A DNA stretch of 64,000 nucleotides from Actinomycetes bacterium (lineage in GTDB: Bacteria; Actinomycetota; Acidimicrobiia; Spongiisociales; ZC4RG35), in assembly GCA_003242515.2 (NCBI GenBank), contig QGUS02000003.1, forward strand, positions 12,647 to 76,646. Reading direction: 5' to 3'. The notes beneath the pieces were generated by a model, which saw only the letters and a list, made by a program, of their open reading frames with translations, was not told the DNA's origin and searched no databases. Positions within the stretch are counted from its first letter, which is position 1; every line of letters begins with the position of its first letter. Position numbers and translations under genes: made by a program. Shown in pieces: positions 2,997-29,866 of this stretch.

Positions 2997-3881
2997 ATGC
3001 GGATACTCCCCCGGCCGTTCGGGCTGATCGTCGCCGACGCCATGGCCGTCCTCGGCCGCACCTGGAAGACCCTCGTCCCGGTCTCCATCGCCGTGTTCGT
3101 GCCAGCGGCGCTGGCGTCCTGGGCGGCCTACTCCATCCCGGGGGCACTCGAGTTCGTGGAGGCCATCCTCCTCGAGCCGGAGACCCTGGCCGGTCTCCCC
3201 GCCGCGGAGTTCTGGGAGCGGGCCCGGCCGTTCGTCACCGCCGCGGTGGTCACGATGGTCGTGCAGCTCCTCGCGTCCGTCCTCGTGTTCCTCTTCTGCC
3301 ACCGCGTCGTGATCGCGTCGGTCCGGGAACAGCCCACCGGCCGGGCCTCCCTGCAGAGGGTGCTCCGCCGCTACCCCGTCGCCGCCGCGGCCACCGTCCT
3401 GTCCGCGGCCGCCGCGTTCGGTCTCTTCCTGATCGGGTACACGGTGTGGAGCATCCCGGCGACCATCGTCGCCTTCCCCAACCCCACCGCAGAGTTCGCC
3501 GGCACCGTCCTCCTCTTCGCCTTCACCGGCCCGGGGATCTGGCTGGCCGTGTCCATGTCGATGGTGACCCCGGTCGCCTCCGTGGAGGAGAAGGGGGTCT
3601 TCGCCTCGATCCGACGCAGCGCCGCCCTGGTCAGGGGCCGTTGGTGGGCCACCCTGGGGTTCCTGCTGGTGGTGGCGATGCTCGGGATCATCGCCGTGAA
3701 CCTGATCCAGCTGGTGGCCATCCCCGTCACCGCGGCCGGTGGCGGCGGCGCCACCCCGATCGCCTCGCTGCTCGGCGTCCTGGCCCAGGGACCGATCGTG
3801 GCGGCGATGGGCGTGATGTTCACCAGCTGGTACCTGGACCTGCGGGCCCGCAAGGAAGTGCTGCTGGTCGCTCAGCTCTGA
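2997..3881 (+). CDS. Polytopic membrane protein of unknown function
   Basis: ATG at 2997 lies in frame within ORF 2625..3881. There are several hydrophobic helices (LVPVSIAVFVPAALASWAAY, LGFLLVVAMLGIIAVNLIQLVAI). The upstream part of the ORF is antisense shadow of mutM. Confidence 0.6.
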   Translation: MRILPRPFGLIVADAMAVLGRTWKTLVPVSIAVFVPAALASWAAYSIPGALEFVEAILLEPETLAGLPAAEFWERARPFVTAAVVTMVVQLLASVLVFLFCHRVVIASVREQPTGRASLQRVLRRYPVAAAATVLSAAAAFGLFLIGYTVWSIPATIVAFPNPTAEFAGTVLLFAFTGPGIWLAVSMSMVTPVASVEEKGVFASIRRSAALVRGRWWATLGFLLVVAMLGIIAVNLIQLVAIPVTAAGGGGATPIASLLGVLAQGPIVAAMGVMFTSWYLDLRARKEVLLVAQL

Positions 3882-7322: not shown

Positions 7323-7861
7323 CGGCTCACCTTCTCGTACCGGAAGATTCTTGTATCCCCGTACCGCTTTGCCGCGGCACTCTCCCAGGTTTTCGGAGCT
7401 GACGGCTCCCGGTCACCGTGGCGACGGGACAGGACGACCGTAGCTCCCGGCGCCAAGCGGGCGTCGAGCAGGGCGAGGTCGCGGTCCAGCTGCTCGGTGG
7501 GCATGTCCCACGGCGGGTCGATGAACACGAGGTCGAAGGTGGCGTCCGACGACTCCAGCCAGGAGCGGACGTCGGCGACCACGATCTCACCTCCGAGACC
7601 CACGGCGGCGAGGTTGGACCTCAGGGCCTCGACCGCCTTGCGGCCCTTCTCCACGAACACGGCCGACCGTGCGCCCCGGGACAGGGCCTCCAGGCCGAAG
7701 GAGCCGCTGCCGGCGTAGAGGTCGGCCACCCGGGCGTCGTCGACCAGGGGCCCGAGCGAGCTGAACACCGCCTCCCGCACGCGGTCGGTGGCGGGCCTGG
7801 TTCCCGTCGTGTCCGGGGCCGCCAGCCTCCTCCCCCGTGCCTGTCCGGCGATGATCCTCAT
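7319..7861 (-). CDS. rsmD: 16S rRNA (guanine966-N2)-methyltransferase RsmD
   Basis: MRIIAGQARGRRL, DLYAGSGSFGLEALSRGA and FIDPPW motifs. ATG at 7861 overlaps the recG stop (ATGA). Confidence 0.85.
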   Translation of the reverse strand: MRIIAGQARGRRLAAPDTTGTRPATDRVREAVFSSLGPLVDDARVADLYAGSGSFGLEALSRGARSAVFVEKGRKAVEALRSNLAAVGLGGEIVVADVRSWLESSDATFDLVFIDPPWDMPTEQLDRDLALLDARLAPGATVVLSRRHGDREPSAPKTWESAAAKRYGDTRIFRYEKVSR

Positions 7862-10020: not shown

Positions 10021-10147
10021 ACGCTCCCGCCACGGTACCGCCTGGCGGGGACGATCACGGCTAGGACTTTCGCGGGGCCGGGGCTAACATTCCGGGGCGG
10101 TCGGCCAGCCCGGCCCCTCTCTCGAGAGTCTTCCAGGAGTTCCAGTC

Positions 10148-10336
10148 ATGTCTTACAGGTGCGAGGTCTGCGGCAAGGAGCCGAGCTACGGCAAGACCGT
10201 CAGCTTCTCCCACAAGCGCAACAACCGCCGCTGGCTTCCGAACATCCAGCGCATCCGTATCAAGCACGGCTCCAACACCCGCCGCGCCCGCGTGTGCACT
10301 TCGTGCATCCGAGCCGGCAAGGTGGTCAAGGCCTGA
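10148..10336 (+). CDS. rpmB: 50S ribosomal protein L28
   Basis: [37 protein letters not shown] is L28-like. GGAG lies upstream of the ATG. Confidence 0.92.
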
Positions 10337-10551
10337 TGGAGCAGGGGGTCGTCAAGTCGTACGACCCCGTGACCGGGGTCGGTGTCGTCGTCCTGGACTC
10401 CGACCGGTCCGAGGTGTTCCTGCGACCGGGGTCCCTCGACGGCTCCATCTTCCGCATGCTCCGGCAGGGGCAGCGTCTCCTGGTCGACACCGTGGAGGAG
10501 GACGGCGTCCGTTACGTCACCACGGTGAAGGTCGGCCAGGACGAGTACTGA
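10336..10551 (+). CDS. Small beta-rich protein (71 aa), possibly cold-shock/OB-like, translationally coupled to rpmB
   Basis: ATG at 10336 overlaps the rpmB TGA (TGATG). Sequence is [34 protein letters not shown].... Nearly all third codon positions are G/C, as in real genes here. Confidence 0.6.
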   Translation: MEQGVVKSYDPVTGVGVVVLDSDRSEVFLRPGSLDGSIFRMLRQGQRLLVDTVEEDGVRYVTTVKVGQDEY

Positions 10552-10757
10552 CGCACCTGGCAGCCCGTAGCTCGCAAGCACGCCGGCGGCCTCGCCGCGT
10601 CTGACTGCCGCCCGCACCGACCCGACGACGGTCCGGCCCGCCCCTCCGGCGGCACTCCCCCACCCGCAGACGCCCATCGGGAAGTGGTCCGGTACCAGGT
10701 ACCCGGCACCCCGATTGCGCTACATTGCCCCGAACCCCTAGAGCACAGGAGGCTCAG

Positions 10758-18831: not shown

Positions 18832-20439
18832 TCAGGCCTGGTCGAGGAGGAGGTCGGCGTACTGGTCGCGCACGACCTTCTTGTCGAACTTCCCGGTGCC
18901 GGTCTTCGGAATGGCCTCGATGAAGACGATCCTGTCCGGGAGCCACCAGGAGGCGACCCGACCTTCGAGGTGCTTGCGGAGCTCCTCCTCGGTGACCTCG
19001 CCCTTCCTGACCACGAAGGCCACCGGGCGCTCCTGCCACTTCGGGTGCTTGAGGCCGACCACCGTGGCCTCGGCCACGGCCGGATGGGCCATCAGCTCGT
19101 TCTCCAGGTCCAGCGAGGAGATCCACTCGCCACCGGACTTGATCACGTCCTTGGCCCGGTCGGTGATCCGGATGTAGCCCTCCGGGGTGATCTTGCAGAC
19201 GTCACCCGTGCGCATCCAACCGTCGACGAACGACTGGGCGGAGCGGTCGTCCTTGTAGTACTCACCGGCGATCCACGGGCCGCGGATCAGCAGCTCGCCG
19301 AACGCCTCGCCGTCGTGCGGGAGCTCCTCTCCCACCTCGTCGACGATCTTCACCTGCAGGCCGAAGACCGGGATGCCGGCCGTCTCGAGACGATCGAGCT
19401 GGTCCTCCAGCGGCCAGTCCTCCATGTGCGGCTTGAGCACGGCGACCGACGCGACCGGATTGGTCTCGGTCATGCCCCATCCCTGGATGATCCGGATCCC
19501 CTGAGCCTTCCAGAACCACTCGATCAGGGCCCGGGGGACGGCGGAGCCGCCGCACAGGAAGGCCCGGATCGACGACAGCCTGACATCGGGGTTCGCCTCC
19601 AGGTACTGCTTGATCCCCAGCCAGACCGTGGGGACACCGGCGCTGAAGGTCACGTTCTCCTCGGTGAACAGCTTCACCAGCCCCTGCGGCGAGAGGTCCG
19701 GTCCCGGGTAGGTGAGCTTGACGCCCCGGGTCACCGCCATGAACGGGTAGCCCCAGGCGGCGGCGTGGAACATCGGGACGACGGGCAGGACGTTGTCCGT
19801 CGGCTCGATGGGGAAGTTCGCCATGTTGTGGACGGTGTGGAGGTAGGTCGACCGCTGGGTGTATGCGACGCCCTTGGGGTTCCCCGTGGTGCCCGACGAG
19901 TAGCAGAGCATCATCGGCGACCGCTCGTCGAGCATCGGCCACTGCCCGTGCTCGGGCTGGTCGGCGATCAGGTCCTCGTAGGCGATGGAGCCGGGCAGGT
20001 CGTCGGATGCCTCCGGGCCCATGACCACCCAGTGCTTCACCGTCTCCATCTTCGAGGCGATCGGGGCGAGCAGCGGGACCAGGTCGGGGTCGACGAACAT
20101 CGCCTCGTCACCGGCGTGGTTGGCGACGTAGACGATCTGGTCGGCGAAGAGGCGGATGTTGATGGTGTGGCAGATCCGTCCGGTGTTGGCCGTCGCCCAG
20201 TAGAGCTCGTGGTGGCGGATGTTGTTCCAGGCGAAGGTACCCACTGCGGCGCCGCGCTCCAGGCCGAGGGCGTCGAACGCCGACGCGAGCCTGCGGACGC
20301 GATGGTCCGTCTCGGCGTAGGTGGTGCGGGTGATGGAGCGGTCGGCCTCGACCGACACGATCTCGGCGTCGGGGTGGATCCACACCGCGTGGTCGTAGAG
20401 CGTGGAGAGCAGGAGCGGGAAATCCATCATGTGGGGCAT
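18832..20439 (-). CDS. Long/medium-chain fatty-acid--CoA ligase (AMP-dependent synthetase)
   Basis: YSSGTTGNPKGV AMP-binding motif. 535 aa. GGGAGGA lies 5 nt upstream of the ATG. Confidence 0.85.
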   Translation of the reverse strand: MPHMMDFPLLLSTLYDHAVWIHPDAEIVSVEADRSITRTTYAETDHRVRRLASAFDALGLERGAAVGTFAWNNIRHHELYWATANTGRICHTINIRLFADQIVYVANHAGDEAMFVDPDLVPLLAPIASKMETVKHWVVMGPEASDDLPGSIAYEDLIADQPEHGQWPMLDERSPMMLCYSSGTTGNPKGVAYTQRSTYLHTVHNMANFPIEPTDNVLPVVPMFHAAAWGYPFMAVTRGVKLTYPGPDLSPQGLVKLFTEENVTFSAGVPTVWLGIKQYLEANPDVRLSSIRAFLCGGSAVPRALIEWFWKAQGIRIIQGWGMTETNPVASVAVLKPHMEDWPLEDQLDRLETAGIPVFGLQVKIVDEVGEELPHDGEAFGELLIRGPWIAGEYYKDDRSAQSFVDGWMRTGDVCKITPEGYIRITDRAKDVIKSGGEWISSLDLENELMAHPAVAEATVVGLKHPKWQERPVAFVVRKGEVTEEELRKHLEGRVASWWLPDRIVFIEAIPKTGTGKFDKKVVRDQYADLLLDQA

Positions 20440-20789
20440 CGAATCCTCCCTGCTGGTCGAAGACGCGCGGGAGGTTACGCGAGCAACCGGCGGGGTGGCC
20501 TGCCGACCGGCATCTTTTCCGCACCGCCCCCCATGCGCATCGGTGCCGCTCCGGCGGCAACTTCATCCGGACCGTCGGCCGCATCCGTCCTCCACGGAGT
20601 CGGGCCTTCCGGAGAGCTCCCGGGCTCCCCGTTCCCGGCGCTCCCCCTCCGCCCGGAAACGGGGGTCCGCTCGGAGCGCTGCTCCCCTGCCGACTTCGCC
20701 GCCACGCGTCGGGGGCACGACGAGGCGGCTCACGACCTGGTGGGAACCACCCCCGGCCCGTGGGGACGGAGGGCGGCTCCCGCGGAACG

Positions 20790-21128
20790 AGGGAGAAAAG
20801 AGAAACCCCGAGGGAGCCTCGGCCGAAGCCTCAACCCTCTCGGGGCTCTCTTGCCGCGCTTCGTCGGGCCGGGGACCCGAATCCGAGCGGACTCTCTTGC
20901 CACCGGCCGAAGCCGACGGCGGGTGCGGCCCGAGGGCCGCCGTTCCCGTTGCCGGGAACTGGTACAGGCCCGAAGGCCTGTTGCCGTTCGTCGGTGACGA
21001 TCCCGAAGGATCCCCGCCGAGCGATCGGCCATCCGAACGCTGCGGGCCGAAGCCCGGCTGCGATTCGGGAAACCTTCACGGACGGTCTCCCGCCCGATCC
21101 GGTGTCTCCGGGTTTCCCCTTCGACGTG
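20790..21128 (-). ncRNA. Candidate structured RNA, unit 2 (about 340 nt), minus strand
   Basis: Bounded by the promoter-like hexamers at 21163-21135 and the terminator-like repeat at 20850-20795. It contains hairpins with UUCG (5 copies including the repeat) and GCAA loops when read on the minus strand. Ends and strand are inferred, not measured. Confidence 0.3.
20795..20850 (-). repeat. 56-nt repeat copy A, terminator-like on the minus strand
   Basis: 54 of 56 nt identical to 21305-21360. Minus strand reads CCCCGAGAGGG..GGCUUCGGCC..CCCUCGGGG followed by UUUCUCUUUUCUCCC. Confidence 0.6.
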
Positions 21129-21134
21129 ACCGGA

Positions 21135-21163
21135 AAGTTACGCCACCAGGTGGGGTGGCACAA
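21135..21163 (-). promoter_or_regulatory. Sigma70-like promoter candidate for unit 2 (TTGTGC-17 nt-TAACTT on the minus strand)
   Basis: The hexamers sit at exactly the same offsets (331 bp shift) as the stronger promoter candidate of unit 1. Confidence 0.3.
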
Positions 21164-21180
21164 GCGGATTCGGCACTTGT

Positions 21181-21208
21181 TTTTCGCGAGCTGCGAGGAG
21201 TTTTCGCG
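21181..21208. promoter_or_regulatory. Pair of TTTTCGCG boxes, 20-bp centre spacing (module 2)
   Basis: TTTTCGCG at 21181-21188 and 21201-21208. The pair ends 17 nt upstream (minus-strand sense) of the -35 candidate. Confidence 0.35.
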
Positions 21209-21302
21209 CTCTGTGTACTCGAAGAACAGCACGAGACCTCTCGCGGCCCGGCGGGAGCCACCCCCACATCTCCACACGCTTCGCTTGGGGAAGGGCAGGG
21301 TG

Positions 21303-21459
21303 CGGAAATGAGAAACCCCGAGGGAGCCTCGGCCGAAGCCTCAGCCCTCTCGGGGCTCTCGGTGTCGTCTCTCCCGGGGAAAGCGGGCCCCCCGTTCGAG
21401 GCGACTGGTCTCCGGGGCCGAAGCCCCTTCGACGGTGACCGGGGCGAACCCCGTTCACG
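21303..21459 (-). ncRNA. Candidate structured small RNA, unit 1 (about 155 nt), minus strand
   Basis: Runs from just downstream of the TATGTT -10 (21471-21466) to the U-tract after repeat copy B. It has a 5' hairpin GUGAACGGGG-UUCG-CCCCGGUCAC, a long hairpin capped by GGGGC-UUCG-GCCCC, and a terminator hairpin. Confidence 0.35.
21305..21360 (-). repeat. 56-nt repeat copy B, terminator-like on the minus strand
   Basis: 54 of 56 nt identical to 20795-20850. On the minus strand it is followed by UUUCUCAUUUCC. Confidence 0.6.
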
Positions 21460-21465
21460 GCACGA

Positions 21466-21494
21466 AACATATGGGTCCCCTCCCGAGCCGTCAA
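21466..21494 (-). promoter_or_regulatory. Sigma70-like promoter candidate for unit 1 (TTGACG-17 nt-TATGTT on the minus strand)
   Basis: The reverse complement of 21489-21494 is TTGACG and that of 21466-21471 is TATGTT. The spacer is exactly 17 nt. Confidence 0.4.
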
Positions 21495-21511
21495 CCGGGA
21501 CCGCTCGCGAC

Positions 21512-21539
21512 TTTTCGCGGCTTGTCACGAATTTTCGCG
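21512..21539. promoter_or_regulatory. Pair of TTTTCGCG boxes, 20-bp centre spacing (module 1)
   Basis: TTTTCGCG at 21512-21519 and 21532-21539. Both are exactly 331 bp from the module 2 boxes, and 17 nt from the -35 candidate. Confidence 0.35.
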
Positions 21540-21565
21540 ACCGGTTTCTGTCCCACCCCCTACCT

Positions 21566-22384
21566 ATGATCGCCACCATGACCGCGACCGCGGCACAGGC
21601 CGTCCCGCTGCGACTCGAGAACCTCTCGCCCAGCCGGGCCGGCGACTTCAAGACCTGCCCCCAGCTCTTCAAGTTCCGGGCCATCGATCGCATCCCCGAG
21701 CCCGTGACCATCCATCAGGCGCGGGGCACCACGGCGCACCTTGCGCTGCAGCGTCTCTTCGACCTCCCCCGCACCAACCGCACCCCGGACACCCTGTTCG
21801 ACCTCTTCAGGCAGGCGTGGACCGAGATCCGGGGCGACGAGGAGTTCACCGGGCTCTTCCCGTCGGTCGAGGAGGAGCGCGCCTGGGGGATCGAGTCCCT
21901 CGGCCTCCTCGCCAACTACTTCGCCATCGAGGACCCGGCCACCTTCGAGCCGGTCGCCCGCGAGCTGGACATGACCGAGCAATTGGGCGACATAGTGATC
22001 CGGGGGATCCTCGACCGGATGGACCGCCGGCCCGACGGGGCGCTGGTGATCACCGACTACAAGACCGGCAAGGCGCCACCCGAGTCGTACGCCCTCCCCG
22101 CCTTCTTCGCCCTCAAGATCTACGCCCTGCTCATCCGGAACCGTCTCGGCGAGACCCCGGCGGAGTTGCGGCTCCTCTACCTGAACGGGCCGACCATGTA
22201 CACGCTGCCCGTCGACGACCGGCAGCTCGACGGCATGGAGAGCCAGCTGCGCGCCCTGTGGTCGGCCATCGACCGGGCGCTGGCCTCGGGCAACTTCCCG
22301 CCCCGGCCGGGGACCCTGTGCAACTGGTGCTCCTACCGGGACATGTGCCCGGCCTGGGTCGAGCCCCCGACCGAGTCGGTCTAG
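21566..22384 (+). CDS. PD-(D/E)XK nuclease, RecB-family exonuclease / Cas4-like with Fe-S cysteines
   Basis: ATG at 21566 (MIATMTATAAQ...). FKTCPQLFKF, GILDRMD, VITDYKTGK (D..D/ExK core) and C-terminal CNWCSYRDMCPAW. Codon usage changes sharply to high GC3 at this ATG. Confidence 0.8.
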   Translation: MIATMTATAAQAVPLRLENLSPSRAGDFKTCPQLFKFRAIDRIPEPVTIHQARGTTAHLALQRLFDLPRTNRTPDTLFDLFRQAWTEIRGDEEFTGLFPSVEEERAWGIESLGLLANYFAIEDPATFEPVARELDMTEQLGDIVIRGILDRMDRRPDGALVITDYKTGKAPPESYALPAFFALKIYALLIRNRLGETPAELRLLYLNGPTMYTLPVDDRQLDGMESQLRALWSAIDRALASGNFPPRPGTLCNWCSYRDMCPAWVEPPTESV

Positions 22385-22385
22385 A

Positions 22386-23684
22386 TCACGGGAAGACGCC
22401 GCGGACGAGCTTGGCGTCGGCGACCCGCTTGATGCCCTTGATCAGGGCGGCGGTGCGCATGTCCACGTTCTCCGAGATGGAGATCGAGTACACGTCGTCG
22501 AACGCCTTGGTCATGATCTCCCGGAGGCGCGCCACCGTCTCGTTCTCCGTCCAGAAGTACTTCTGGACGTCCTGAACCCATTCGAAGTAGGAGACGGTCA
22601 CACCACCGGCGTTGGCCAGGATGTCCGGGACGATGAAGACCTCGCGCTCGCGCAGGATCTCGTCGCCCTCGATGGTCGTCGGGTTGTTGGCTCCCTCGAT
22701 GATGATCCTGGCCTTCACGTCCCTGGCGGTGTCGGTGTTGATCACGCCCTGGACCGCGGCCGGGATGAGCACGTCGCACTCGAGCCCGAGGAGCTGCTCG
22801 TTGGTGATGTGGTCAGCCTCGGGGTAGCCCTCGAGGTACTTGTGCTCCTGCACCCACTTCTGGGCAGAAGGCACGTCGATCCCGTCCGGGTTGTAGATGC
22901 CGCCGGAGATGTCGGACACCGCGATCACCTTGTGTCCCGCCTGCTGGGCGGCGATGGCCGCGTACAGGCCGACGTTGCCGAAGCCATGGATGGCGACGTC
23001 GAGGCCGTTGCCGTCCAGGCCGATCGCGTTGGCGGCCTGCGGGATGAGGAACACCAGGCCGCGGCCGGTCGCCTCGCGCCGGGCGACGGAGCCGCCGAGT
23101 GCCGGGGGCTTGCCGGTGACGATGGCCGGCACCGCATGCCCGACGTACTGGCTGTAGGTGTCCATCAACCAGGCCATCACCTGCTCGTTGGTGCCCAGGT
23201 CGGGCGCAGGGATGTCCTTCTCGGGGCCGATGACGTTGATGATCTCCATGGTGTAGCGGCGGGTGACCCGCTGCAGCTCGGCGCGGGACAGCTGCATCGG
23301 GTCGATGCGGACTCCGCCCTTGGCGCCACCGAACGGGACGCCGACGATGGCGCACTTCCACGTCATCAGCATCGCGAGGGCGGCCACCTCGCCGAGGTTC
23401 ACGTCCGGCGCGTAGCGGATGCCGCCCTTGGTCGGGCCCATCGTGGTGAGGTGCTGGACCCGGTAGCCGAAGATGGTCTCGACGTCCTTGTATGTGTCAC
23501 GACGGAACGGGAAGGCGACGATCGTCGACTTCTGCGGGACACGGAGCCGGGCGGCGACGTTCTTGTCGAGACCCATCAACTCCGCCACACGGTCGAACTG
23601 CCCCACCGCGTCGTGGTACATGGGAGAGTCGAACTCGTGACCTACGTCCAACAAAGTTGATCCCTTCCTTGCGGGTGGCCTCAT
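22386..23684 (-). CDS. gdhA: Glutamate dehydrogenase (Glu/Leu/Phe/Val dehydrogenase family)
   Basis: KGGIRY and GVPFGGAKGG motifs with a Rossmann fold (GFGNVG). The start is uncertain: ATG at 23684, or TTG at 23654/23651 after AGGAAGGG. Confidence 0.88.
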   Translation of the reverse strand: MRPPARKGSTLLDVGHEFDSPMYHDAVGQFDRVAELMGLDKNVAARLRVPQKSTIVAFPFRRDTYKDVETIFGYRVQHLTTMGPTKGGIRYAPDVNLGEVAALAMLMTWKCAIVGVPFGGAKGGVRIDPMQLSRAELQRVTRRYTMEIINVIGPEKDIPAPDLGTNEQVMAWLMDTYSQYVGHAVPAIVTGKPPALGGSVARREATGRGLVFLIPQAANAIGLDGNGLDVAIHGFGNVGLYAAIAAQQAGHKVIAVSDISGGIYNPDGIDVPSAQKWVQEHKYLEGYPEADHITNEQLLGLECDVLIPAAVQGVINTDTARDVKARIIIEGANNPTTIEGDEILREREVFIVPDILANAGGVTVSYFEWVQDVQKYFWTENETVARLREIMTKAFDDVYSISISENVDMRTAALIKGIKRVADAKLVRGVFP

Positions 23685-23754
23685 CCTATTGATGGGCGCC
23701 GGGGTTGCCACTTCTCCGCGGAATCTGTCACACCCGGTTCGTAGGGTGACGACC

Positions 23755-23877
23755 ATGAACCAGAACTTCGACACCGAGAAGGTGTTCGCCGACCCGGCGG
23801 CGTGGCTCGCCCGCTTCGGCATCGCCGCCGAGGTCGTGGAGACCCTCGCCGAGCAGCCGCTGGCGGAGGCCGCCTGA
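23755..23877 (+). CDS. Small acidic protein (40 aa) upstream of adnA
   Basis: MNQNFDTEKVFADPAAWLARFGIAAEVVETLAEQPLAEAA. By hand count every third codon position is G/C, matching real genes. It ends 17 nt before the adnA GTG. Confidence 0.45.
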   Translation: MNQNFDTEKVFADPAAWLARFGIAAEVVETLAEQPLAEAA

Positions 23878-23894
23878 CCCCTACGATCGGTTCC

Positions 23895-26819
23895 GTGGCG
23901 GAGTCACGGATCGGTCCCGACGAATGGCAGTCCGCGATCGAGCGGACCGACGGCCGTCAGCTGGTCGTCGCCGGCCCGGGCACCGGCAAGACCGAATTCA
24001 TCGCACGCCGGGTCGAGCACCTGGTCTCGTCGGGCAAGGCGCGCCGCGACGCGATCGCCGTCCTCTGCTTCTCGCGCCGGGCGGCCGGTTACCTGACCGA
24101 CCGCATAGCCGACCTGGTCGGGGCGACCGGGCATCCGATCACGGTCACCACCTTCCACTCCCTCGCCCTCTCCATCATGGAGGCGGCCCGGGACGGCGAG
24201 CCCCCGACCGTCCTCACCACACCAGAGCAGATCGACTTCGTGAGGCGGGTCCTCGCCGACGAGGACCCTGAGGACTGGCCCATCGTCTTCAGGGGCATCC
24301 TCGGGACCCGTCCGTTCGCCGTCGAGGTCGCCGACTTCGTGATGCGTTGCTCGGAGCGTCTCCTCACCCCCGAGGACCTCCAGTCGATGGCGGAGCAGCG
24401 GGCCGACTGGCGGGCCATGCCCGGCTTCTACCGCCGCTATCTGGACCGGCTGCGCCAGGCAGGGCGGACCGACTACGGGGTCCTCCTCGCCGACGTGGTG
24501 GGGATCCTCGCCTCGGGGCACGAGACGCCCTTCCGCTACGTCCTGGTCGACGAGTACCAGGACACCACCCCCGCCCAGGCGGAGATGGCCCGGCTGCTCG
24601 CGGAGCCGCACGGCAACCTCACCGTCGCAGGCGACCCCTACCAGTCGATCTACTCGTTCCGGGGCGCCGAGCTCTCCAACATCGCCGCATTCGCCGACGC
24701 GGAGCGGATCGTCCTCGCCGAGAGCTTCCGGGTGCCGCAGGCGATCATGGAGGCGGCCCTGCGCGTCGTGTCCGGAGCCGACCTGCCCGGCGCCGCCGGC
24801 CCGGTGGTCCCGGCACCGCACCAGGGCAGCGCCGAGGCCTACGTCTTCGACCAGGAGACCGCGGAGGCCGAGTGGATCGCCGACCAGGTGGAGAAGGCGA
24901 TCGTCGTCGACGGCGTCCCGGCCTCCCGCATCGCCATCCTCCTCCGCACCAAGAGGGAGCTCGCCGCCGAGCTGTCCCGGGCCCTGGACCGCCGCGGCAT
25001 CCCCCACGACCCGCCCCGGTCCCGCCTCGTCGACCACCCGGCGGTCAGCCTGGTACGGGACATCGTGACTGCCTCCGTGCACGGCGGTCCGCTTCCCACC
25101 ACCGACGCCTCCGACGCGGCGGAAGCCGACCGGGCCATGCGCCGCGTCCTCCTCGGGCCGGTCTTCGGGCTCGACCTCTCCACCGAACGCGCCCTGATGC
25201 GCGCCCGGCGGAGGACCTGGGAGCCGTGGCACCACATCGTCGCCGAGCGTCTGCCCCACCTTCCGGGGCTCGCCTCCCTCCTCGCCGACCCCTCGTGGGC
25301 CACCACCCGGCCGGCAGCCGAGGGCTTCTGGCACCTCTGGTCGACCGTCGAGGGGGTCGACCGGATCGTCGCCGACCCGGAGCGCGCCGACTGGCGGAGG
25401 GCATGGAGGTCGTTCGCCCAGACGCTGGCGCGACAGTCCGAGCGGGACCCGTCCGTGACGCTGCATCACTACTTCGTCCTCACCGAGGACGAGGACTTCG
25501 AGGCCCAGCCGATGCTCCCTGCCCACCTCCCCTCGGAGCGGGTCACCCTGACCACCCTCCACCAGGCCAAGGGCCTCGAGTTCGACATCGTCTTCATCGC
25601 CAACGCCGTCGAAGGCGTGTTCCCCGACCTCCGCCGCAGCCGCCGGCTGCTCCGGCCGGAGCTCCTGGAGCCCTCCCGTCTCACCGACATGGAGGCCCAG
25701 GGCACGTTCCATCTCCAGGAGGAGACCCGCCTCGCCTACACCGCGATGACCAGGGCGAGGTCCCGGGTCGTGTGGACCGCCACCCGGGCGGCCGACGATC
25801 TCGGCGAACGCCGGCCCTCGAGGTTCCTCGTGGCCGCATCCGGCGGGTCCGCCGACCTGGGTCCGCCCGACGACGCCGAGACCGAGCCCGTCACGGTCGT
25901 CGGCATGGAGCGTGTCCTCCGCCGGCACCTCCTCGACCCGGCTGCGCCCGCCGCGGTCCGGCTCGGGGCGGTGAGGGTGCTGGTCCGGCATGCCGAGGGC
26001 CGGTGGAACCCGATGCGGTTCGCCGGGGTCCCCGAGCGCGGGCCGTCGTCGCCGATCCTCCCCGAGTTCTTCCGGCTCTCCCCGAGCCAGGCGGAGTCCT
26101 TCCGCGACTGCCCCCGCAGGTACGCGCTGGAACGGCGCCTCCAGCTCACCGACTCGGACAACGACTACGCCCAATCGGGCTCGCTGGTCCACAAGGCCTG
26201 CGAGCTGGCCGAGACCGAGATCGTCGGCACCGGCGAGATCCACGCCCCCCTCAAGCGCGTGCTCGAGATCCTCGACGAGGTCTGGGAGGAGGAGGCCGAC
26301 TTCGGTGGCCACACCAGGAACCGCGCCTTCCTGAAGCGTGCCCGGGAGATCGTGACCACGCTCTACACCCTCTGGCCGAGCAACGGGACCCCGGTCGCCC
26401 TCGAGAAGCCCATCCGCATCGAGATCGGCGGGGTCACCTGGAGGGGCCTGGTCGACCGCGTCGAGAGGACCGACGCGGGGCTCAAGGTGGTCGACCTCAA
26501 GACGGGAACGAAGCCGCCTTCCCACGAAGAGGCGGCACGCTCGCTGCAGCTCGCCTTCTACGTCCTGGCACTCCAGGAGGAAGGAGAGGACGTGACCGCG
26601 GCCGAGCTCTGGTACCCGGCCGCGAGGTACAAGGCGAGCATCGCGGTGAGGAGGCTGGACATGTCGGCCGTGCCCGAGATCCGCCAGGAGCTCGAGGGGC
26701 TCGTGACCGAGCTCAGGGCGGAGAGGTGGGAGGCCCGGGTGTCCGCAGCGTGCGAGCACTGCGCCTTCAAGTCCTCATGCCCCCAGTGGCCCGACGGCAA
26801 GGAGGCCTACCTCCCGTGA
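23895..26819 (+). CDS. adnA: UvrD-like helicase + RecB-like nuclease subunit (AdnA-like)
   Basis: GTG at 23895. VVAGPGTGKTEF Walker A, VDEYQDT motif II. C-terminal nuclease VVDLKTG plus the cysteine set FRDCPRRY...CEHCAFKSSCPQW. Confidence 0.8.
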   Translation: MAESRIGPDEWQSAIERTDGRQLVVAGPGTGKTEFIARRVEHLVSSGKARRDAIAVLCFSRRAAGYLTDRIADLVGATGHPITVTTFHSLALSIMEAARDGEPPTVLTTPEQIDFVRRVLADEDPEDWPIVFRGILGTRPFAVEVADFVMRCSERLLTPEDLQSMAEQRADWRAMPGFYRRYLDRLRQAGRTDYGVLLADVVGILASGHETPFRYVLVDEYQDTTPAQAEMARLLAEPHGNLTVAGDPYQSIYSFRGAELSNIAAFADAERIVLAESFRVPQAIMEAALRVVSGADLPGAAGPVVPAPHQGSAEAYVFDQETAEAEWIADQVEKAIVVDGVPASRIAILLRTKRELAAELSRALDRRGIPHDPPRSRLVDHPAVSLVRDIVTASVHGGPLPTTDASDAAEADRAMRRVLLGPVFGLDLSTERALMRARRRTWEPWHHIVAERLPHLPGLASLLADPSWATTRPAAEGFWHLWSTVEGVDRIVADPERADWRRAWRSFAQTLARQSERDPSVTLHHYFVLTEDEDFEAQPMLPAHLPSERVTLTTLHQAKGLEFDIVFIANAVEGVFPDLRRSRRLLRPELLEPSRLTDMEAQGTFHLQEETRLAYTAMTRARSRVVWTATRAADDLGERRPSRFLVAASGGSADLGPPDDAETEPVTVVGMERVLRRHLLDPAAPAAVRLGAVRVLVRHAEGRWNPMRFAGVPERGPSSPILPEFFRLSPSQAESFRDCPRRYALERRLQLTDSDNDYAQSGSLVHKACELAETEIVGTGEIHAPLKRVLEILDEVWEEEADFGGHTRNRAFLKRAREIVTTLYTLWPSNGTPVALEKPIRIEIGGVTWRGLVDRVERTDAGLKVVDLKTGTKPPSHEEAARSLQLAFYVLALQEEGEDVTAAELWYPAARYKASIAVRRLDMSAVPEIRQELEGLVTELRAERWEARVSAACEHCAFKSSCPQWPDGKEAYLP

Positions 26820-29800
26820 CGCTCCCCAAGCCCTCCCCCGAACAGCAGGCCATCCTCGACCTCGGCCTGACCACCATCAAGGTCCGCGCCGGCGCAGGCA
26901 CGGGCAAGACGACCACCGTGGCCATGGTGATCGCCAACCTGGTTGCCAACCACGGCATCGACCCCACCCAGGTGGTCGGCCTCACCTTCACCAACAAGGC
27001 CGCCGCCGAGCTGGCCGACCGGGTCCGCGCCTACATCGGCGAGTCCGACCCCTCCCGCCAGGCGGAGATCCACACCTACCATGGGTTCGCCGCCCAGCTG
27101 CTCTCGGAGTTCGGCGTCCTCGCCGGGCTGGACAGCCGGCTCAAGGTGATCACCCCCACCTTCGCGCGGCAGATCCTCTCCGACGTCGTCTACTCGGGAG
27201 ACCTCCCCGAGCACCTGGACATCAGTTGGAAGGGGCGCATCGACCTCATCGGCACACTGGCCGACCGCCTCGGCGATCACCTGCTCACCCCCGACGACCT
27301 CCTGGCCCACGAGGAGGAAGACTCCAAGGCCTCCCGGGCTCGTCGGGACATGGCCATCATCCTCCGCCGGTACGAGGAGGAGAAGCGCCGTCTCGGAGTC
27401 GTCGACTTCTCCGACCTGGTCCGCATGGCGGCGATGCTGATGCAGGATCCGGCCGTCGCCGACATCGTCCGCAACCGCTACCGCGTGGTCGTCCTCGACG
27501 AGTACCAGGACACCAACCCCGCGCAGCGCAAGCTACTCCAGTCCCTCTTCGGGAACCGCTTCCCGGTGATCGCCGTCGGCGACGAGGACCAGACCATCTA
27601 CGAGTGGCGCGGCGCCTCCATGGAGAACTTCGCCGCCTTCGAGGAACACTTCACGGCACCGGATGGGCGCCGGCCCGTGCTCCGGACGCTCACGCTCAAC
27701 CGCCGGTCCACCCCCGCGATCCTCCAGGTCGGGAACGTGGTCAGGAAGCGCGCCAACGAGGACGCCGACGACCTGGTGCCTGCCCTGCCCGACGACCCCG
27801 ACGGGACGGTGCGTACCCACTGGGCCCAGACCGCGCTCGCAGAGGCGGAGTGGGTCGCCGCCCGTTTCGAGGAGCTCCACGACCGCGGCCTGCGATGGAA
27901 GGACATGGCCGTGCTCCTCCGCAAGAACAAGGACTTCCGCGTCGTGGTCGAGGCGCTCGCCCGTCACGACATCCCCGTCGAGGTGGCCAACGTCGGCGGT
28001 CTGCTCTCCATCCCCGAGGTCAACGACCTCGTCTGCTGGCTGAAGATCCTGGAGCGCCCGGACGACTCCGCCTCGCTCACCACGATCCTCATGGGCAGCC
28101 GGTTCCGGCTCGGCCTCGCCGACCTCGCCATCCTCTCCAAGCACGTCCGGGCCCGCTCGGAAGAGACCGAGTCGGAAGACGCCGAGGGCAATCCGGTCCC
28201 GGTGACCCTCCTGGAGGTCGTGGAGGACGAGGTGCCCGGGCTCCGGCCCGATGCGGCGGCCGCACTCTCCGACTTCCGGGACATGTACCGCCGCATCCTC
28301 ATCGAGTCGCAGGGACTGAGCCTGGTGGAGACCTGCCGTCTCGTCCTCGACGTGACCGGGGCCTGGCGCGACGTGGAGGCACTCCCACCCGTCCCGCGCC
28401 TCACCGCCCGCCTCAACCTCTACCGCGTGCTCGACCTCGCCCAGGACTGGAGCCCGCTCCAGGGGCGCCCCTCCCTGGAGGCCTTCCTGGACTACCTGGA
28501 CACGGCGAACGAAGAGACCTCGGTGGACGAACTCGACTCCGCCCGCCTCTCCGGCGAGGACGCGGTGACCCTGCTCACCGTCCACCGGGCCAAGGGTCTG
28601 GAGTGGGAGGCGGTCGCCATCCCCGCGGTCTACGAGAAGAACTTCCCGTCCTCATCGACCAACTACGGCAATCCCATGACGACCCCGGCGGCCGTCCCGA
28701 TCGAGCTGCGCCTCGACACCGTGATGGCGCACCTGGGGCCGGAAGAGAAGGCGGTCACGGCGTTCCTGACCGAAGCCCACCTGAGGCAGGAGTGGCGGAC
28801 CGCATATGTCGCCGTCACCCGGGCCCGGCGCCACCTCTTCGTCACCGGCGCCTACTGGTACGGCTACCCGGAAACCCTGAAGGATCCGAGGAGCCCCTCT
28901 CCCCTCTGGGAGGAGGTGAACCGCATCACGGGCGACGTCCCCGAACTGCCGCCGCCCATCGACCGCCCGGACCTGATCCGGTTCGAGTCGCAGGCCACCC
29001 CCGACCCGGTGTTCCCCGAGGGCTGGGACGCCGCGGTCCGCAGCACCCTCAGGGACCCGGACTGGCCCGACCGGCTCGCCGAGCAGCGGCAGATCGAGAC
29101 CGAGTACCGGGCGGCGGTCGCCTACATGGAGGAGCGGCTGTTCTCGCTGGCCGAGACCGATCCCCCGGCCGCCGTTCCGGAGACCCGGCCGGTATCGGTG
29201 ACCGGGCTCGTCACCTACGCCCAGTGCCCGAAGCGCTTCTACTGGAGCGAGGTGGACCCTCTGCCCCGGAGGCTCAACCCGGCCGCCGTGCGGGGCACGG
29301 AGCTGCACCGGCGCATCGAGCTCCACCAGAAGGGCATGATCCCGCTCCCGATCGACGACACGCCGTCCTACGACGCCGTCGCCGAGGACGACTGGTCGCC
29401 CGGGGCGTACGACACCTACCTCCGCTCCCGTTTCGCCGACCGGCAGGCGGCCCTGGTGGAGCAGCCGTTCAACCTCGAGGTCGGGCGGACCGTGATCCGG
29501 GGCCGCATCGACGCCATCTACGTCGAGGGCGACCGTTGGGAGATCGTGGACTTCAAGAGCGGGCTGCCCTCGGACGACCCGAACCGGCTGGTGCAGCTCC
29601 AGGCCTATGCGGTGGCGGCGAACGACGTGGACTTCGGACTGCCCTCCCCGGCGGACCTCCGGGTGACCTTCGCCTACCTGGGCGGGGGCGGGCACGAGGA
29701 GACCCACGTGGCCGACCGGGGGTGGACCGAGCGGGCCCGGGACGCCGTGACCGGGCTCGTGTCGGGCATCGAGTCGGGAGCCTTCGAGGAGACGCCGGGG

Positions 29801-29866
29801 ACCTGGTGCCGGCACTGCGACTTTGTCCGTTTCTGCCCCGCGGGACGGGAGTTTCTGGGAGGATGA
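26816..29866 (+). CDS. adnB: UvrD-like helicase + RecB-like nuclease subunit (AdnB-like)
   Basis: GTG at 26816 overlaps the adnA stop, after GGAGG. VRAGAGTGKTTT, LDEYQDTNP, IVDFKSG nuclease core, YAQCPKRF...CRHCDFVRFCPAG. Confidence 0.8.
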   Translation: MTLPKPSPEQQAILDLGLTTIKVRAGAGTGKTTTVAMVIANLVANHGIDPTQVVGLTFTNKAAAELADRVRAYIGESDPSRQAEIHTYHGFAAQLLSEFGVLAGLDSRLKVITPTFARQILSDVVYSGDLPEHLDISWKGRIDLIGTLADRLGDHLLTPDDLLAHEEEDSKASRARRDMAIILRRYEEEKRRLGVVDFSDLVRMAAMLMQDPAVADIVRNRYRVVVLDEYQDTNPAQRKLLQSLFGNRFPVIAVGDEDQTIYEWRGASMENFAAFEEHFTAPDGRRPVLRTLTLNRRSTPAILQVGNVVRKRANEDADDLVPALPDDPDGTVRTHWAQTALAEAEWVAARFEELHDRGLRWKDMAVLLRKNKDFRVVVEALARHDIPVEVANVGGLLSIPEVNDLVCWLKILERPDDSASLTTILMGSRFRLGLADLAILSKHVRARSEETESEDAEGNPVPVTLLEVVEDEVPGLRPDAAAALSDFRDMYRRILIESQGLSLVETCRLVLDVTGAWRDVEALPPVPRLTARLNLYRVLDLAQDWSPLQGRPSLEAFLDYLDTANEETSVDELDSARLSGEDAVTLLTVHRAKGLEWEAVAIPAVYEKNFPSSSTNYGNPMTTPAAVPIELRLDTVMAHLGPEEKAVTAFLTEAHLRQEWRTAYVAVTRARRHLFVTGAYWYGYPETLKDPRSPSPLWEEVNRITGDVPELPPPIDRPDLIRFESQATPDPVFPEGWDAAVRSTLRDPDWPDRLAEQRQIETEYRAAVAYMEERLFSLAETDPPAAVPETRPVSVTGLVTYAQCPKRFYWSEVDPLPRRLNPAAVRGTELHRRIELHQKGMIPLPIDDTPSYDAVAEDDWSPGAYDTYLRSRFADRQAALVEQPFNLEVGRTVIRGRIDAIYVEGDRWEIVDFKSGLPSDDPNRLVQLQAYAVAANDVDFGLPSPADLRVTFAYLGGGGHEETHVADRGWTERARDAVTGLVSGIESGAFEETPGTWCRHCDFVRFCPAGREFLGG

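Follow-up and report, generated by a model that had tools for sequence, protein, structure and literature searches.

A predicted pair of paralogous structured RNA genes with a shared terminal hairpin in a conserved noncoding gap of Acidimicrobiia

The single large noncoding gap in the window (the whole 64,000-nt stretch of DNA that was analysed) most probably harbours two paralogous, independently transcribed genes for structured noncoding RNAs on the minus strand. Both are predicted to be read away from the neighbouring nuclease gene and towards an acyl-CoA ligase gene. Judged by comparison with known families, the two appear to be previously undescribed and to represent a new RNA family of a known kind; their promoters, their ends and transcription itself we infer from the sequence. 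The initial annotation had suggested that the gap is a large structured RNA locus or a small-RNA array, and something more than a plain divergent promoter region. Comparative data across Acidimicrobiia support both statements, in the form of two predicted genes whose promoters are conserved, whose helices covary and which end in a common hairpin. The layout of the region is as follows.

20440-20795, no strand: unconserved G+C-rich spacer of ~355 nt outside the conserved RNAs, with the acyl-CoA ligase promoter and 5' leader
20796-21131, minus strand: predicted long RNA gene, ~336 nt here and 279-535 nt in relatives, with about ten helices (from alignment A2 and folding)
21135-21163, minus strand: putative long RNA promoter, read from the sequence, with -35 TTGTGC (21163-21158), a 17-nt spacer and -10 TAACTT (21140-21135)
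21181-21208, minus strand: long RNA twin boxes CGCGAAAA-N12-CGCGAAAA, plus-strand TTTTCGCG at 21181-21188 and 21201-21208 (direct repeat D3)
21209-21305, no strand: spacer from the short RNA 3' end to the long RNA boxes, conserved only in the closest relatives
21306-21462, minus strand: predicted short RNA gene, ~155 nt, with four helices (from alignment A1, covariance model R1 and folding)
21466-21494, minus strand: putative short RNA promoter, with -35 TTGACG (21494-21489), a 17-nt spacer and -10 TATGTT (21471-21466)
21512-21539, minus strand: short RNA twin boxes CGCGAAAA-N12-CGCGAAAA, plus-strand TTTTCGCG at 21512-21519 and 21532-21539 (direct repeat D3)
21549-21580, plus strand: putative promoter and start of the PD-(D/E)XK nuclease gene, TGTC-N12-TATGAT-N7-ATG

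The noncoding gap spans 20440-21577. The initial annotation had the nuclease gene start at 21566, but the ATG at that position lies inside the conserved -10 element TATGAT, and the conserved start is the ATG at 21578. That this is the only large noncoding gap of the window was confirmed by a codon-phase scan of the whole window, in which 20391-21651 is the sole stretch of more than 400 nt without any phase above 0.85 G+C; a second apparent gap at 10020-10725 was discarded, as it carries the gene for ribosomal protein L28 and another small gene. Codon-phase G+C is flat from ~20440 to 21560, with a largest phase difference of 0.02-0.30 versus 0.4-0.66 in the flanking genes. Long open reading frames do span the gap, as would be expected of a decayed pseudogene or of a region concealing small protein genes, but their G+C contents at the first, second and third positions are ~0.63-0.79, compared with 0.92-0.96 at third and 0.42-0.48 at second positions in the genuine genes of the window. 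For the frame 20402-21565 the computed third-position value is 0.69, so the hand count of ~65% in the initial annotation was right. None of the six-frame open reading frames of the gap had a Pfam match. Among homologous sequences, variability is similar in all three codon phases of the gap (0.63-0.76; 0.47/0.27/1.11 in a neighbouring coding control), substitutions lack codon periodicity, and the lengths of most indels are not divisible by three; a search for relatives with an intact protein gene at this position, which the initial annotation had called for, found no protein-coding gene aligned to the conserved parts of the gap in any relative compared. Taken together, these observations make a pseudogene or hidden small genes extremely unlikely. 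Nor is the gap an assembly artefact, since the same sequence was recovered at 99.9-100% identity in independent JGI and Logan assemblies.

Folding, loop composition, base-pair type and model scores all place the structures on the minus strand. Minus-strand folding beats shuffled sequences with z = -5.67 for 20796-21131 and -3.29 for 21306-21462, whereas the plus strand gives weaker values (-3.51 and -1.55, respectively). Within 20796-21462 the hexamer CTTCGG occurs seven times on the minus strand and never on the plus strand (~0.4 expected from the rest of the window), and the seven C(UUCG)G loops and one GCAA loop all lie on the minus strand, with none on the plus strand. Invariant G-U pairs fit the minus strand and would become A-C mismatches on the other, covariance model R1 scores 97-169 bits for sense matches versus at most 37 bits for antisense ones, and both putative RNA promoters are on the minus strand. 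Strand, two-gene organisation, promoters and the 51-nt repeat described below had not been part of the initial annotation.

Helices were assigned from comparative data rather than from minimum-free-energy folds, and those of the long RNA were mapped from its alignment onto window coordinates. In the order of predicted transcription, they are:

21435-21458, minus strand: short RNA P1, whose tetraloop swaps between UUCG, GCAA, GAAA and GAGA among species
21408-21433, minus strand: short RNA P2, with a UUCG loop
21364-21405, minus strand: short RNA P3, with the invariant apical sequence GGGGGCCCGCUUUCC
21310-21360, minus strand: short RNA P4, the shared terminal hairpin
21103-21126, minus strand: long RNA 5' GNRA hairpin, conserved
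within 20992-21021, minus strand: long RNA invariant hairpin GGGGAUCC-UUCG-GGAUCGUC
20964-20981, minus strand: long RNA hairpin with a UUCG loop, conserved
20942-20959, minus strand: long RNA hairpin with a GCAA loop, conserved
20926-20941, minus strand: long RNA hairpin specific to this window
20899-20920, minus strand: long RNA hairpin with a UUCG loop, conserved
20854-20890, minus strand: long RNA C-rich hairpin domain (GGGUCCCCGGCCCG), conserved
20800-20850, minus strand: long RNA shared terminal hairpin

The four hairpins singled out in the initial annotation (20926-20941, 20942-20959, 20964-20981 and 21435-21458) are all real, and three of them are conserved helices. By contrast, its 8-bp long-range pairing of 21067-21074 with 21111-21118 found no support: 21110-21119 belongs to a local covarying GNRA hairpin, and the pairing was rejected because it breaks this conserved 5' hairpin. 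Minimum-free-energy folds of the whole gap and a single-sequence fold of the long RNA, whose long-range closures break the same hairpin, were set aside.

Compensatory substitutions, a general hallmark of small-RNA genes, are abundant in both predicted RNAs, as judged against slid alignments and shuffles as controls rather than by a formal test such as R-scape. In the 46 short-RNA homologues of alignment A1, 91.7% of cells are paired (36-61% when slid; 0 of 500 shuffles as high), and 29 of 47 pairs changed on both sides. In the 25 long-RNA homologues of alignment A2, in which the MAFFT alignment of the variable middle is imprecise, the corresponding values are 92.5% (34-49% when slid; again none of 500 shuffles this high) and 44 of 101 pairs. 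At the short RNA of the window, model R1 scores 121 bits, with 97-169 bits in 52 loci, and it matches the 3' part of the long RNA at 74 bits. From species to species, entire hairpins come and go in the long RNA, but its conserved domains are kept. Some genomes (L100, L108, L145, L151 and L043 among them) have the short RNA in inverted orientation, and in the most divergent short-RNA homologues (L038, L059, L072 and L080) the P3 loop is swapped for other sequence.

The two predicted RNA genes share their end, a near-invariant 51-nt hairpin with UUUCUC behind it. This 51-mer, of which the window has two copies, is an imperfect palindrome, and it is 85-100% identical across loci whose nuclease proteins are only 68-87% identical. 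Seven of its 17 pairs in A1 and nine of 15 in A2 never vary, while neighbouring helices drift freely; in the GGGGAUCC hairpin of the long RNA the same holds for six of 11 pairs. A terminator scan flags both hairpin sites in the window as terminator-like. Most relatives have few U residues in the tail that follows the hairpin (GGGGUUUCUCGCGU), so that intrinsic termination is not assured. Contigs carrying an identical nuclease gene commonly break at 21314, but we rejected this as evidence for a transcript end, since the 51-nt repeat accounts for the break. Directly 5' of the terminal hairpin lies a conserved C/U-rich loop, which reads GGCCCGCUUU in the short RNA; in the long RNA the hairpin at this place has CCC/UCCCC as its loop.

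Each predicted RNA gene has a conserved promoter of housekeeping type of its own, as expected of small-RNA genes in general, with phased twin boxes and -35/-10 elements at fixed distance in 75 gene units. The short RNA promoter is the only sigma-70-type site found in 20300-21700, where shuffles predict none, and the predicted 5' end of the RNA was placed from it to within a few nucleotides. Over the 75 units, which include both RNA classes, the consensus is cTTGaCg-17-Tac.TT (CTTGAC-17-TAnnTT), and the putative long RNA promoter matches it in architecture and spacing. The -35 element of the short RNA promoter follows the end of the proximal box at a distance of 18 nt, which is kept in 69 of the 75 units, and the distance from box to hairpin is 150-161 nt in 46 units. 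The CGCGAAAA boxes occur only upstream of these RNA genes, both in the window and in 80 related loci, and we know of no match between them and GlnR-like or other known actinobacterial operators. As to the INDEPENDENCE of the two units, boxes and promoter are separate for each, and some genomes carry inserted protein genes to one side or the other.

In nearly all of 80 Acidimicrobiia loci, the sequence preceding the orthologous nuclease gene is a match to the gap, and model R1 finds at least one copy in 76 of these 80, between the acyl-CoA ligase and nuclease genes. In a metagenome scan, 69 of 85 matching stretches had the same flanking genes and the rest were short contigs save one false positive (~84 contigs); the latter, L133, is a chance match within a coding region in a different context. 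The terminal hairpin had no match in a scan of viral contigs, and there is thus no sign of a mobile or phage origin. As the nuclease homologue search returned only close relatives (at least 70% identity), the distribution data lie within Acidimicrobiia, and there, as far as these homologues indicate, the predicted RNA pair is a stable feature of the class at this locus. The synteny with the nuclease gene may reflect only the general gene-order conservation of the region.

Conservation in BLAST comparisons stops at the terminal hairpin of the short RNA. In the spacer that follows, 21231-21265 is a weak copy (repeat D2, 77% identity) of 20720-20754, the sequence after the long RNA. BLAST matched the outer spacer, 20440-20795, to none of the 80 loci, not even to that of the closest relative (87-90% protein identity); the corresponding interval in other genomes ranges from ~30 nt to more than 1300 nt and can hold protein genes. 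On this side the locus is bounded by the AMP-binding acyl-CoA ligase gene, with a Shine-Dalgarno sequence GGGAGGA 5 nt before its ATG at 20439, and on the other by the PD-(D/E)XK nuclease gene, followed by genes for glutamate dehydrogenase and an AdnA-like helicase-nuclease. The pair is surrounded by nuclease, AdnAB-like and RecG genes. A pattern TGTC-N12-TAnnnT-N5-8-(A/G)TG precedes the nuclease gene in 53 of 57 full-length loci, versus 0.3% of shuffled controls, and the nuclease mRNA is probably leaderless, starting at the ATG at 21578. We take TGTC-N12-TATGAT-N7-ATG to be the RecA-NDp/PafBC form of promoter, a motif for which Gamulin et al. 2004 is reportedly the source. The RecA-NDp/PafBC motif is named in PMC6789036 and PMC8223512.

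Comparison with known RNA families identified no relative. A cmscan of 20000-22000 against the 4227 models of Rfam 15, among them those for 6S, 6C, raiA, tmRNA, RNase P, SRP, riboswitches and group I/II introns, at E<=10 returned two noise matches only (Transposase-2, at 18.2 bits versus a threshold of 42.7, and an archaeal snoRNA), and neither the whole window at the gathering threshold nor eight homologous loci at E<=1 gave any match. This Infernal search, suggested in the initial annotation, agrees with its failure to recognise the cores of tmRNA, RNase P RNA, SRP RNA or common riboswitches, and ARAGORN likewise found no tRNA or tmRNA in the window or in 60 related loci.

Could the hairpins be DNA-level repeats (REP, MITE or terminator-like) or protein-binding palindromes rather than parts of RNA genes? 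The 51-mer is a palindrome present twice, assemblies break at it, and the orientation of one unit flips between genomes, all as such elements would predict. REP or MITE families have many dispersed copies per genome, whereas the 64 kb of the window hold two copies, and these keep to a single locus, where almost all metagenome matches also fall, and viral contigs have none. Conserved promoters at fixed distances from the hairpins are likewise hard to reconcile with repeats, and the strand-specific G-U pairs, tetraloops and compensatory changes point to selection on a single-stranded transcript, so that we consider repeats very unlikely. Cis-acting leaders, with the long RNA controlling the acyl-CoA ligase gene in the manner of a riboswitch or an attenuator and the terminal hairpin as its regulated terminator, seem improbable to us. 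It is true that in most loci the long RNA precedes the ligase gene and has the same orientation, and that its hairpin ends 30-90 nt before the ligase start in compact genomes. A leader would hold a constant position directly upstream of its gene, but the distance here varies from ~30 to more than 1300 nt, with protein genes in between in L007 and L075, and compact loci have -10-like elements between hairpin and ligase start. Moreover, this near-invariant hairpin also closes the short RNA, behind which lies a second promoter instead of a gene, and the orientation of the short RNA can be reversed; an alternative anti-terminator pairing is not evident, and no Rfam riboswitch matched.

The predicted RNAs might, alternatively, be Acidimicrobiia counterparts of the polymerase-binding 6S and Ms1 RNAs, which are abundant in stationary phase and sequester RNA polymerase. 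Their sizes of ~155 and ~335 nt resemble those of 6S (~180 nt) and Ms1 (~300 nt) (PMC9130861), and, like these, they are structured, presumably abundant RNAs with strong, conserved promoters. 6S is poorly detected in Actinobacteria and Ms1 has not been reported for Acidimicrobiia. Yet in both consensus structures local hairpins follow one another, where 6S-like RNAs would form a long rod with a central bubble resembling an open promoter, the RNA 3' end is locked in a local covarying hairpin, and the 6S models give no match. Ms1, an actinobacterial RNA found largely via synteny, is flanked by genes for a HAD-IB hydrolase/phosphoserine phosphatase and an oxidoreductase (PMC9130861), which are not neighbours here. 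On synteny and architecture we rejected identity with Ms1, and we regard membership of this group as a slim prospect. Pseudogene, dispersed repeats, gene leaders and 6S/Ms1 membership are, in sum, rejected or disfavoured in favour of two structured RNA genes.

Our best inference for the role of these genes is a co-regulated pair of stable trans-acting RNAs that would bind protein, pair with mRNAs via C-rich loops, or both. The twin boxes would bind one dedicated regulator or bend DNA, so that both RNAs would be made together, and the hairpin with its U-rich tail would end transcription and protect the 3' end, yielding discrete stable RNAs of ~155 and ~335 nt that would act in trans. As the likeliest single mechanism, still put forward tentatively, we suggest that a protein partner recognises the helical sequences that never vary: in both RNAs the 5' strand of the terminal hairpin, and in the long one also the GGGGAUCC/GGAUCGUC hairpin. 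Such binding would make the RNAs ribonucleoprotein scaffolds or decoys, the short one being the minimal and the long one the extended version. Protein or tertiary recognition is suggested because some helices never vary while their neighbours drift freely, and because the long RNA exchanges whole hairpins while retaining its conserved domains.

A possible though somewhat doubtful mechanism is base-pairing of the 6C/RsaE type, in which the loops GGCCCGCUUU of the short RNA and UCCCC of the long RNA would pair with G-rich Shine-Dalgarno regions of mRNAs and the other hairpins would only stabilise the RNA. The position of the invariant GGCCCGCUUU loop and of the CCC/UCCCC loop, both directly 5' of the terminal hairpin, fits this well, and siblings with a common promoter and terminator and differing bodies are typical of base-pairing regulators, as in the small RNAs OmrA/OmrB, Qrr and AbcR. 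Actinobacteria are not known to have Hfq and use C-rich loops in 6C RNA, which would also be in keeping with base-pairing. On the other hand, a body of 280-535 nt with several invariant helices far exceeds the needs of a base-pairing RNA, the 6C model gives no match, and the replacement of the P3 loop in the four divergent homologues weakens the idea of a seed there. The window shows no excess of sites that could pair with the short-RNA loop (6 versus 13 expected); being below chance, this search says nothing on targets. Protein binding and base-pairing are not mutually exclusive. We think it rather unlikely that the long RNA represents a new class of large tertiary-folded RNA (a ribonucleoprotein core, or a catalytic or ligand-binding RNA) that belongs to the core of Acidimicrobiia biology, the short RNA being its minimal paralogue or decoy and the pair perhaps tied to the DNA-damage response; the last link is suggested by the surrounding nuclease, AdnAB-like and RecG genes and by the PafBC-type promoter of the nuclease gene.

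Soils, sediments, the ocean and wastewater all harbour abundant Acidimicrobiia, and almost none of the RNA biology of this class is known. The predicted pair is kept throughout the class with an unusually conserved promoter architecture and a shared invariant module, and its long member is large and intricate enough to be compared with the few 'ornate' bacterial RNAs. If confirmed, the pair would provide annotation pipelines with two new RNA families in a region now left blank or called as spurious open reading frames, make the CGCGAAAA twin box a candidate regulator-binding site and the long RNA a tractable target for structure and partner discovery, and explain the frequent breaks of metagenome contigs at this position.

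In its many covarying helices, invariant blocks, predicted promoter and terminator of its own and stable distribution across a clade, the long RNA resembles the large structured bacterial RNAs raiA, OLE, ROOL and GOLLD, and its GNRA tetraloops similarly suggest tertiary contacts. It differs from them in having no sequence or structure match to any in Rfam 15, in being so far predicted without pseudoknots, in sharing its terminal module with a short paralogue and, relative to OLE, ROOL and GOLLD, in its smaller size. The raiA motif is present in Acidimicrobiia (PMC10861870), but identity with it was rejected, as its model does not match. The 51-nt element resembles intrinsic terminators as a G+C-rich hairpin followed by UUUCUC(UUUU) at each gene end. 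Ordinary terminators, however, lack class-wide sequence conservation, whereas its 5' strand is nearly invariant, its U-tract is short in most relatives, and its tail can pair with GAGAG at the hairpin base. Small RNAs of high-G+C Gram-positive bacteria such as 6C (RF01066) of Actinobacteria, and RsaE of Firmicutes, likewise have stable hairpins with conserved C-rich loops, are independently transcribed and are conserved over a large taxon. 6C itself is ~60-100 nt long, lies in a different genomic context and has two loops of about six C each, while the RNAs described here have four to about ten helices with mostly UUCG or GNRA loops, one C-rich loop per RNA and no covariance-model match, so that we did not assign them to 6C. 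The organisation of the locus recalls OmrA/OmrB, PrrF1/2, AbcR1/2 and the decoy pair GlmY/GlmZ. These are proteobacterial RNAs of 80-200 nt, mostly Hfq-dependent, that share no sequence with the RNAs described here, one of which is a multi-domain RNA of 280-535 nt; but they, too, come from neighbouring paralogous genes that carry separate copies of one regulated promoter, conserved upstream sites included, and their terminal hairpins are nearly identical on bodies that differ.

The gap between the acyl-CoA ligase start (20439, minus strand) and the PD-(D/E)XK nuclease gene lacks a coding signal, as the initial annotation had proposed. Codon-phase G+C is flat over ~20440-21560 (phase difference 0.02-0.30; 0.4-0.66 in the flanking genes, with one phase at 0.92-1.00), and a whole-window scan returned 20391-21651 as the sole stretch longer than 400 nt without this signal. 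The ORFs crossing the gap have no Pfam match and GC1, GC2 and GC3 values of 0.63-0.79; the longest, whose low third-position G+C had already been remarked upon, has a computed GC3 of 0.69, compared with 0.92-0.96 (GC2 0.42-0.48) in the real genes of the window. In alignments of homologous gaps, column variability is the same in all three codon phases (0.63-0.76; 0.47/0.27/1.11 in the nuclease coding control) and the majority of indels are not multiples of three, on which grounds both a coding gene and the decayed pseudogene envisaged as an alternative in the initial annotation were rejected. Nor is the gap an assembly artefact, since its sequence is 99.9-100% identical in independent JGI and Logan assemblies. 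The second-largest apparent gap (10020-10725) is occupied, at 10148-10551, by an ORF of ~70 residues next to the L28 ribosomal protein gene (62 residues), and is therefore not non-coding.

Folding z-scores against dinucleotide shuffles were -5.67 and -3.29 on the minus strand for the segments of two proposed RNA genes, the long RNA and the short RNA, respectively, and weaker on the plus strand (-3.51 and -1.55). When the minus strand is read, nearly all hairpin tips are classical stable tetraloops (seven C(UUCG)G, one GCAA), and CTTCGG occurs seven times on this strand and never on the other within 20796-21462, with ~0.4 expected from how often it occurs in the rest of the window. A direct repeat of 51-56 nt (20800-20850 and 21310-21360, one mismatch, 510 nt apart) has no third copy in the 64 kb, and TTTTCGCG-N12-TTTTCGCG is likewise found twice (21181-21208 and 21512-21539). 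A generic promoter scan of 20300-21700 marked both 51-nt hairpins as terminator-like and gave TTGACG-17-TATGTT as the only such promoter site. The resulting gene units are as follows.

~21462 to ~21306, minus: short RNA, predicted ends within a few nt
21494-21466, minus: predicted short-RNA promoter TTGACG-17-TATGTT, from the scan
~21131 to ~20796, minus: long RNA, predicted ends within a few nt
21163-21135, minus: predicted long-RNA promoter TTGTGC-17-TAACTT, read from the sequence
21181-21208, minus: long-RNA twin boxes, a direct repeat

A 35-nt segment found ~45-80 nt past either terminal hairpin (20720-20754 and 21231-21265) is 77% identical between the units in this genome only, which points to a recent duplication or gene conversion reaching beyond the RNA ends. 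Many independent assemblies of the organism (Logan contigs L170-L175) break at one identical base inside the 51-nt hairpin, equivalent to window position 21314, so that the repeat, present in two copies, systematically interrupts assemblies in this lineage.

A search with the flanking nuclease yielded 80 loci (68-87% protein identity), essentially all from metagenome-assembled Acidimicrobiia genomes, in which the gene order acyl-CoA ligase (-), gap, nuclease (+), glutamate dehydrogenase (-) and AdnA-like helicase-nuclease (+) is kept; a further protein search with the nuclease returned only close relatives. By BLAST, 20800-21020 together with 21080-21210, and 21310-21565, are conserved in nearly all loci, while the 355 nt beside the ligase gene (20440-20795) matched none, the closest relative included. 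The 51-mer is 85-100% identical across loci, exceeding the conservation of the neighbouring proteins. The short RNA was turned into a covariance model, R1, which matches 76 of the 80 loci at least once and the window only twice. Its sense-strand scores are 97-169 bits in 52 loci and 121 bits in the window; the 3' portion of the long RNA reaches 60-93 bits, and antisense scores do not exceed 37 bits. A metagenome scan gave 85 stretches, of which 69 include at least one of the two flanking genes, ligase and nuclease; one is a chance match within a coding region, and the remaining ones are short contigs that carry the same pair of RNAs. As nearly all of the stretches scanned represent the same locus or RNA pair and viral contigs gave no matches, a dispersed repeat is considered very improbable.

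Box-to-hairpin units number 112 when the window and the 80 loci are taken together. Their distances fall into two main classes, 150-161 nt for the short RNA and 279-535 nt for the long RNA, the latter reaching 535 nt in L024 (1200-1734); a few units, short-RNA variants, measure only ~100 nt. On the minus strand, the aligned nuclease-proximal copies share a single layout, namely a pair of CGCGAAAA boxes spaced by 21-22 nt, an interval of 18 nt (in 69 of 75 units) before CTTGAC(G), a 17-nt spacer, TAC.TT, the RNA body and the 51-nt hairpin. The twin boxes are restricted to the fronts of these units, with their centres ~three and ~five turns of the helix before the -35, and we recognised no known actinobacterial operator matching them; a dedicated regulator may bind there, or the boxes may be a phased A-tract element. 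Comparative analysis thus shows two conserved units of predicted promoter, structured body and hairpin, both on one strand, in agreement with the structured RNA locus or small-RNA array initially postulated.

The short-RNA unit is inverted and faces the nuclease in L100, L108, L145, L151, L043, L072 and L080, with the long RNA keeping its orientation, which suggests that a cassette running from promoter to hairpin was inverted. L047 (complete chromosome OY970227.1) carries three units with hairpins ahead of the nuclease rather than two (602-886, 1055-1097 and 3417-3725), and the count of RNA genes at the locus is therefore not constant. Two YdbS/YdbT-like membrane-protein genes lie between the long RNA and the ligase in L007 (1915-3170) and L075, and an MFS-like transporter gene lies between the short RNA and the nuclease in L010 (2728-3975); insertions thus recur in this intergenic region.

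Homologues of the short RNA (A1, 46 sequences) and the long RNA (A2, 25 sequences) were aligned, and the following elements, all on the minus strand, were recognised.

Short RNA P1: helix, loop varying between UUCG, GCAA, GAAA and GAGA by species
Short RNA P2: helix, UUCG loop, numerous G-C to A-U exchanges
Short RNA P3: helix, invariant apical sequence GGGGGCCCGCUUUCC
Short RNA P4: helix, the terminal hairpin common to both RNAs
21103-21126: long RNA, conserved 5' GNRA hairpin
Within 20992-21021: long RNA, invariant hairpin GGGGAUCC-UUCG-GGAUCGUC
Including 20942-20959 and 20964-20981: long RNA, several covarying tetraloop hairpins, these two already picked out in the initial annotation
20854-20890: long RNA, conserved C-rich hairpin domain
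20800-20850: long RNA, conserved terminal hairpin, common with the short RNA

In A1, 91.7% of cells form standard pairs, compared with 36-61% after shifting the partner by 1-3 columns, and both sides change in 29 of 47 pairs, values reached by none of 500 shuffles. In A2, which is rough across the long RNA's variable core, pairing holds in 92.5% of cells (34-49% after shifting), with double changes in 44 of 101 pairs. The alignments indicate selection for base pairing, joined in some helices by selection for the sequence itself. The terminal hairpin is conserved much too strongly for a plain terminator: 7 of 17 pairs (A1) and 9 of 15 (A2) never vary, and hardly any change is seen along its 5' strand, while its internal loop drifts on the 3' side and a G-C to A-U compensation occurs at one pair. 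Whole hairpins of the long RNA are gained and lost among species, and L009 and L014 carry an internal duplication of hairpin modules with a repeated GAAAGCCAAAGGGAAACCGGAGGCGGAAGG unit.

Upstream of the nuclease gene, TGTC-N12-TAnnnT-N7-ATG is present in 53 of 57 loci and 0.3% of shuffles (21549-21580), an element that we take to have the form of the PafBC-bound actinobacterial RecA-independent DNA-damage promoter, and that implies a leaderless nuclease mRNA. The predicted true start is ATG 21578, and the ATG at 21566 initially assigned as the start falls within the -10 element TATGAT. The neighbourhood is rich in DNA-repair genes (7858-10020, 21578-22384 and 23802-29866), with a RecG helicase, the stand-alone nuclease and an AdnA-like UvrD-helicase/nuclease fusion, after which comes another long ORF, probably AdnB-like. 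On identical contigs, glutamate dehydrogenase (22386-23822) is called with 411 residues (start ~23621) against a maximal ORF of 478, and a 40-residue ORF is called between it and the helicase-nuclease gene (~23755-23877).

As to function, the housekeeping polymerase would transcribe both units, and the twin boxes would either be bound by one activator common to both or bend the DNA as phased A-tracts, which would make the two RNAs co-expressed; the terminal hairpin and its UUUCUC tail would end and protect the transcripts. Our first choice, tentatively held, is that a protein recognises the RNA, which would serve as ribonucleoprotein scaffold or decoy, because this fits the conserved terminal hairpin, the unvarying hairpin with GGGGAUCC and the way in which inert hairpins come and go as modules. 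A 6C-like base-pairing role, nearly as probable, is favoured by conserved C/U-rich loops adjoining the terminator and need not exclude protein recognition. Both are likelier than polymerase sequestration, which we consider improbable, and than cis-regulation, about equally improbable. If the long RNA were a leader of the ligase gene, it would be difficult to explain why the distance from hairpin to ligase start ranges from ~30 nt to >1300 nt, why compact loci have -10-like elements after the hairpin, and why membrane-protein genes can intervene; the transporter gene separating short RNA and nuclease and the inverted short-RNA units also argue against such control.

With cmscan, no known RNA family was found in the region, the window or eight homologous loci, and ARAGORN found nothing in the window or related loci. 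Identity with Ms1 or 6S was rejected, as the HAD-IB hydrolase and oxidoreductase genes flanking Ms1 (PMC9130861) are absent here and neither RNA has a rod-with-bubble shape; the raiA motif occurs in Acidimicrobiia (PMC10861870), but its model has no match here. Neither Rfam 15 nor the searched literature describes these RNAs, and we rate both as candidate new bacterial structured RNA families. Their organisation is similar to that of the tandem sibling small RNAs OmrA/OmrB and GlmY/GlmZ, their loops recall those of 6C, and the long RNA is akin to the raiA-type, clade-stable large RNAs of unknown function, although they are members of none of these groups.
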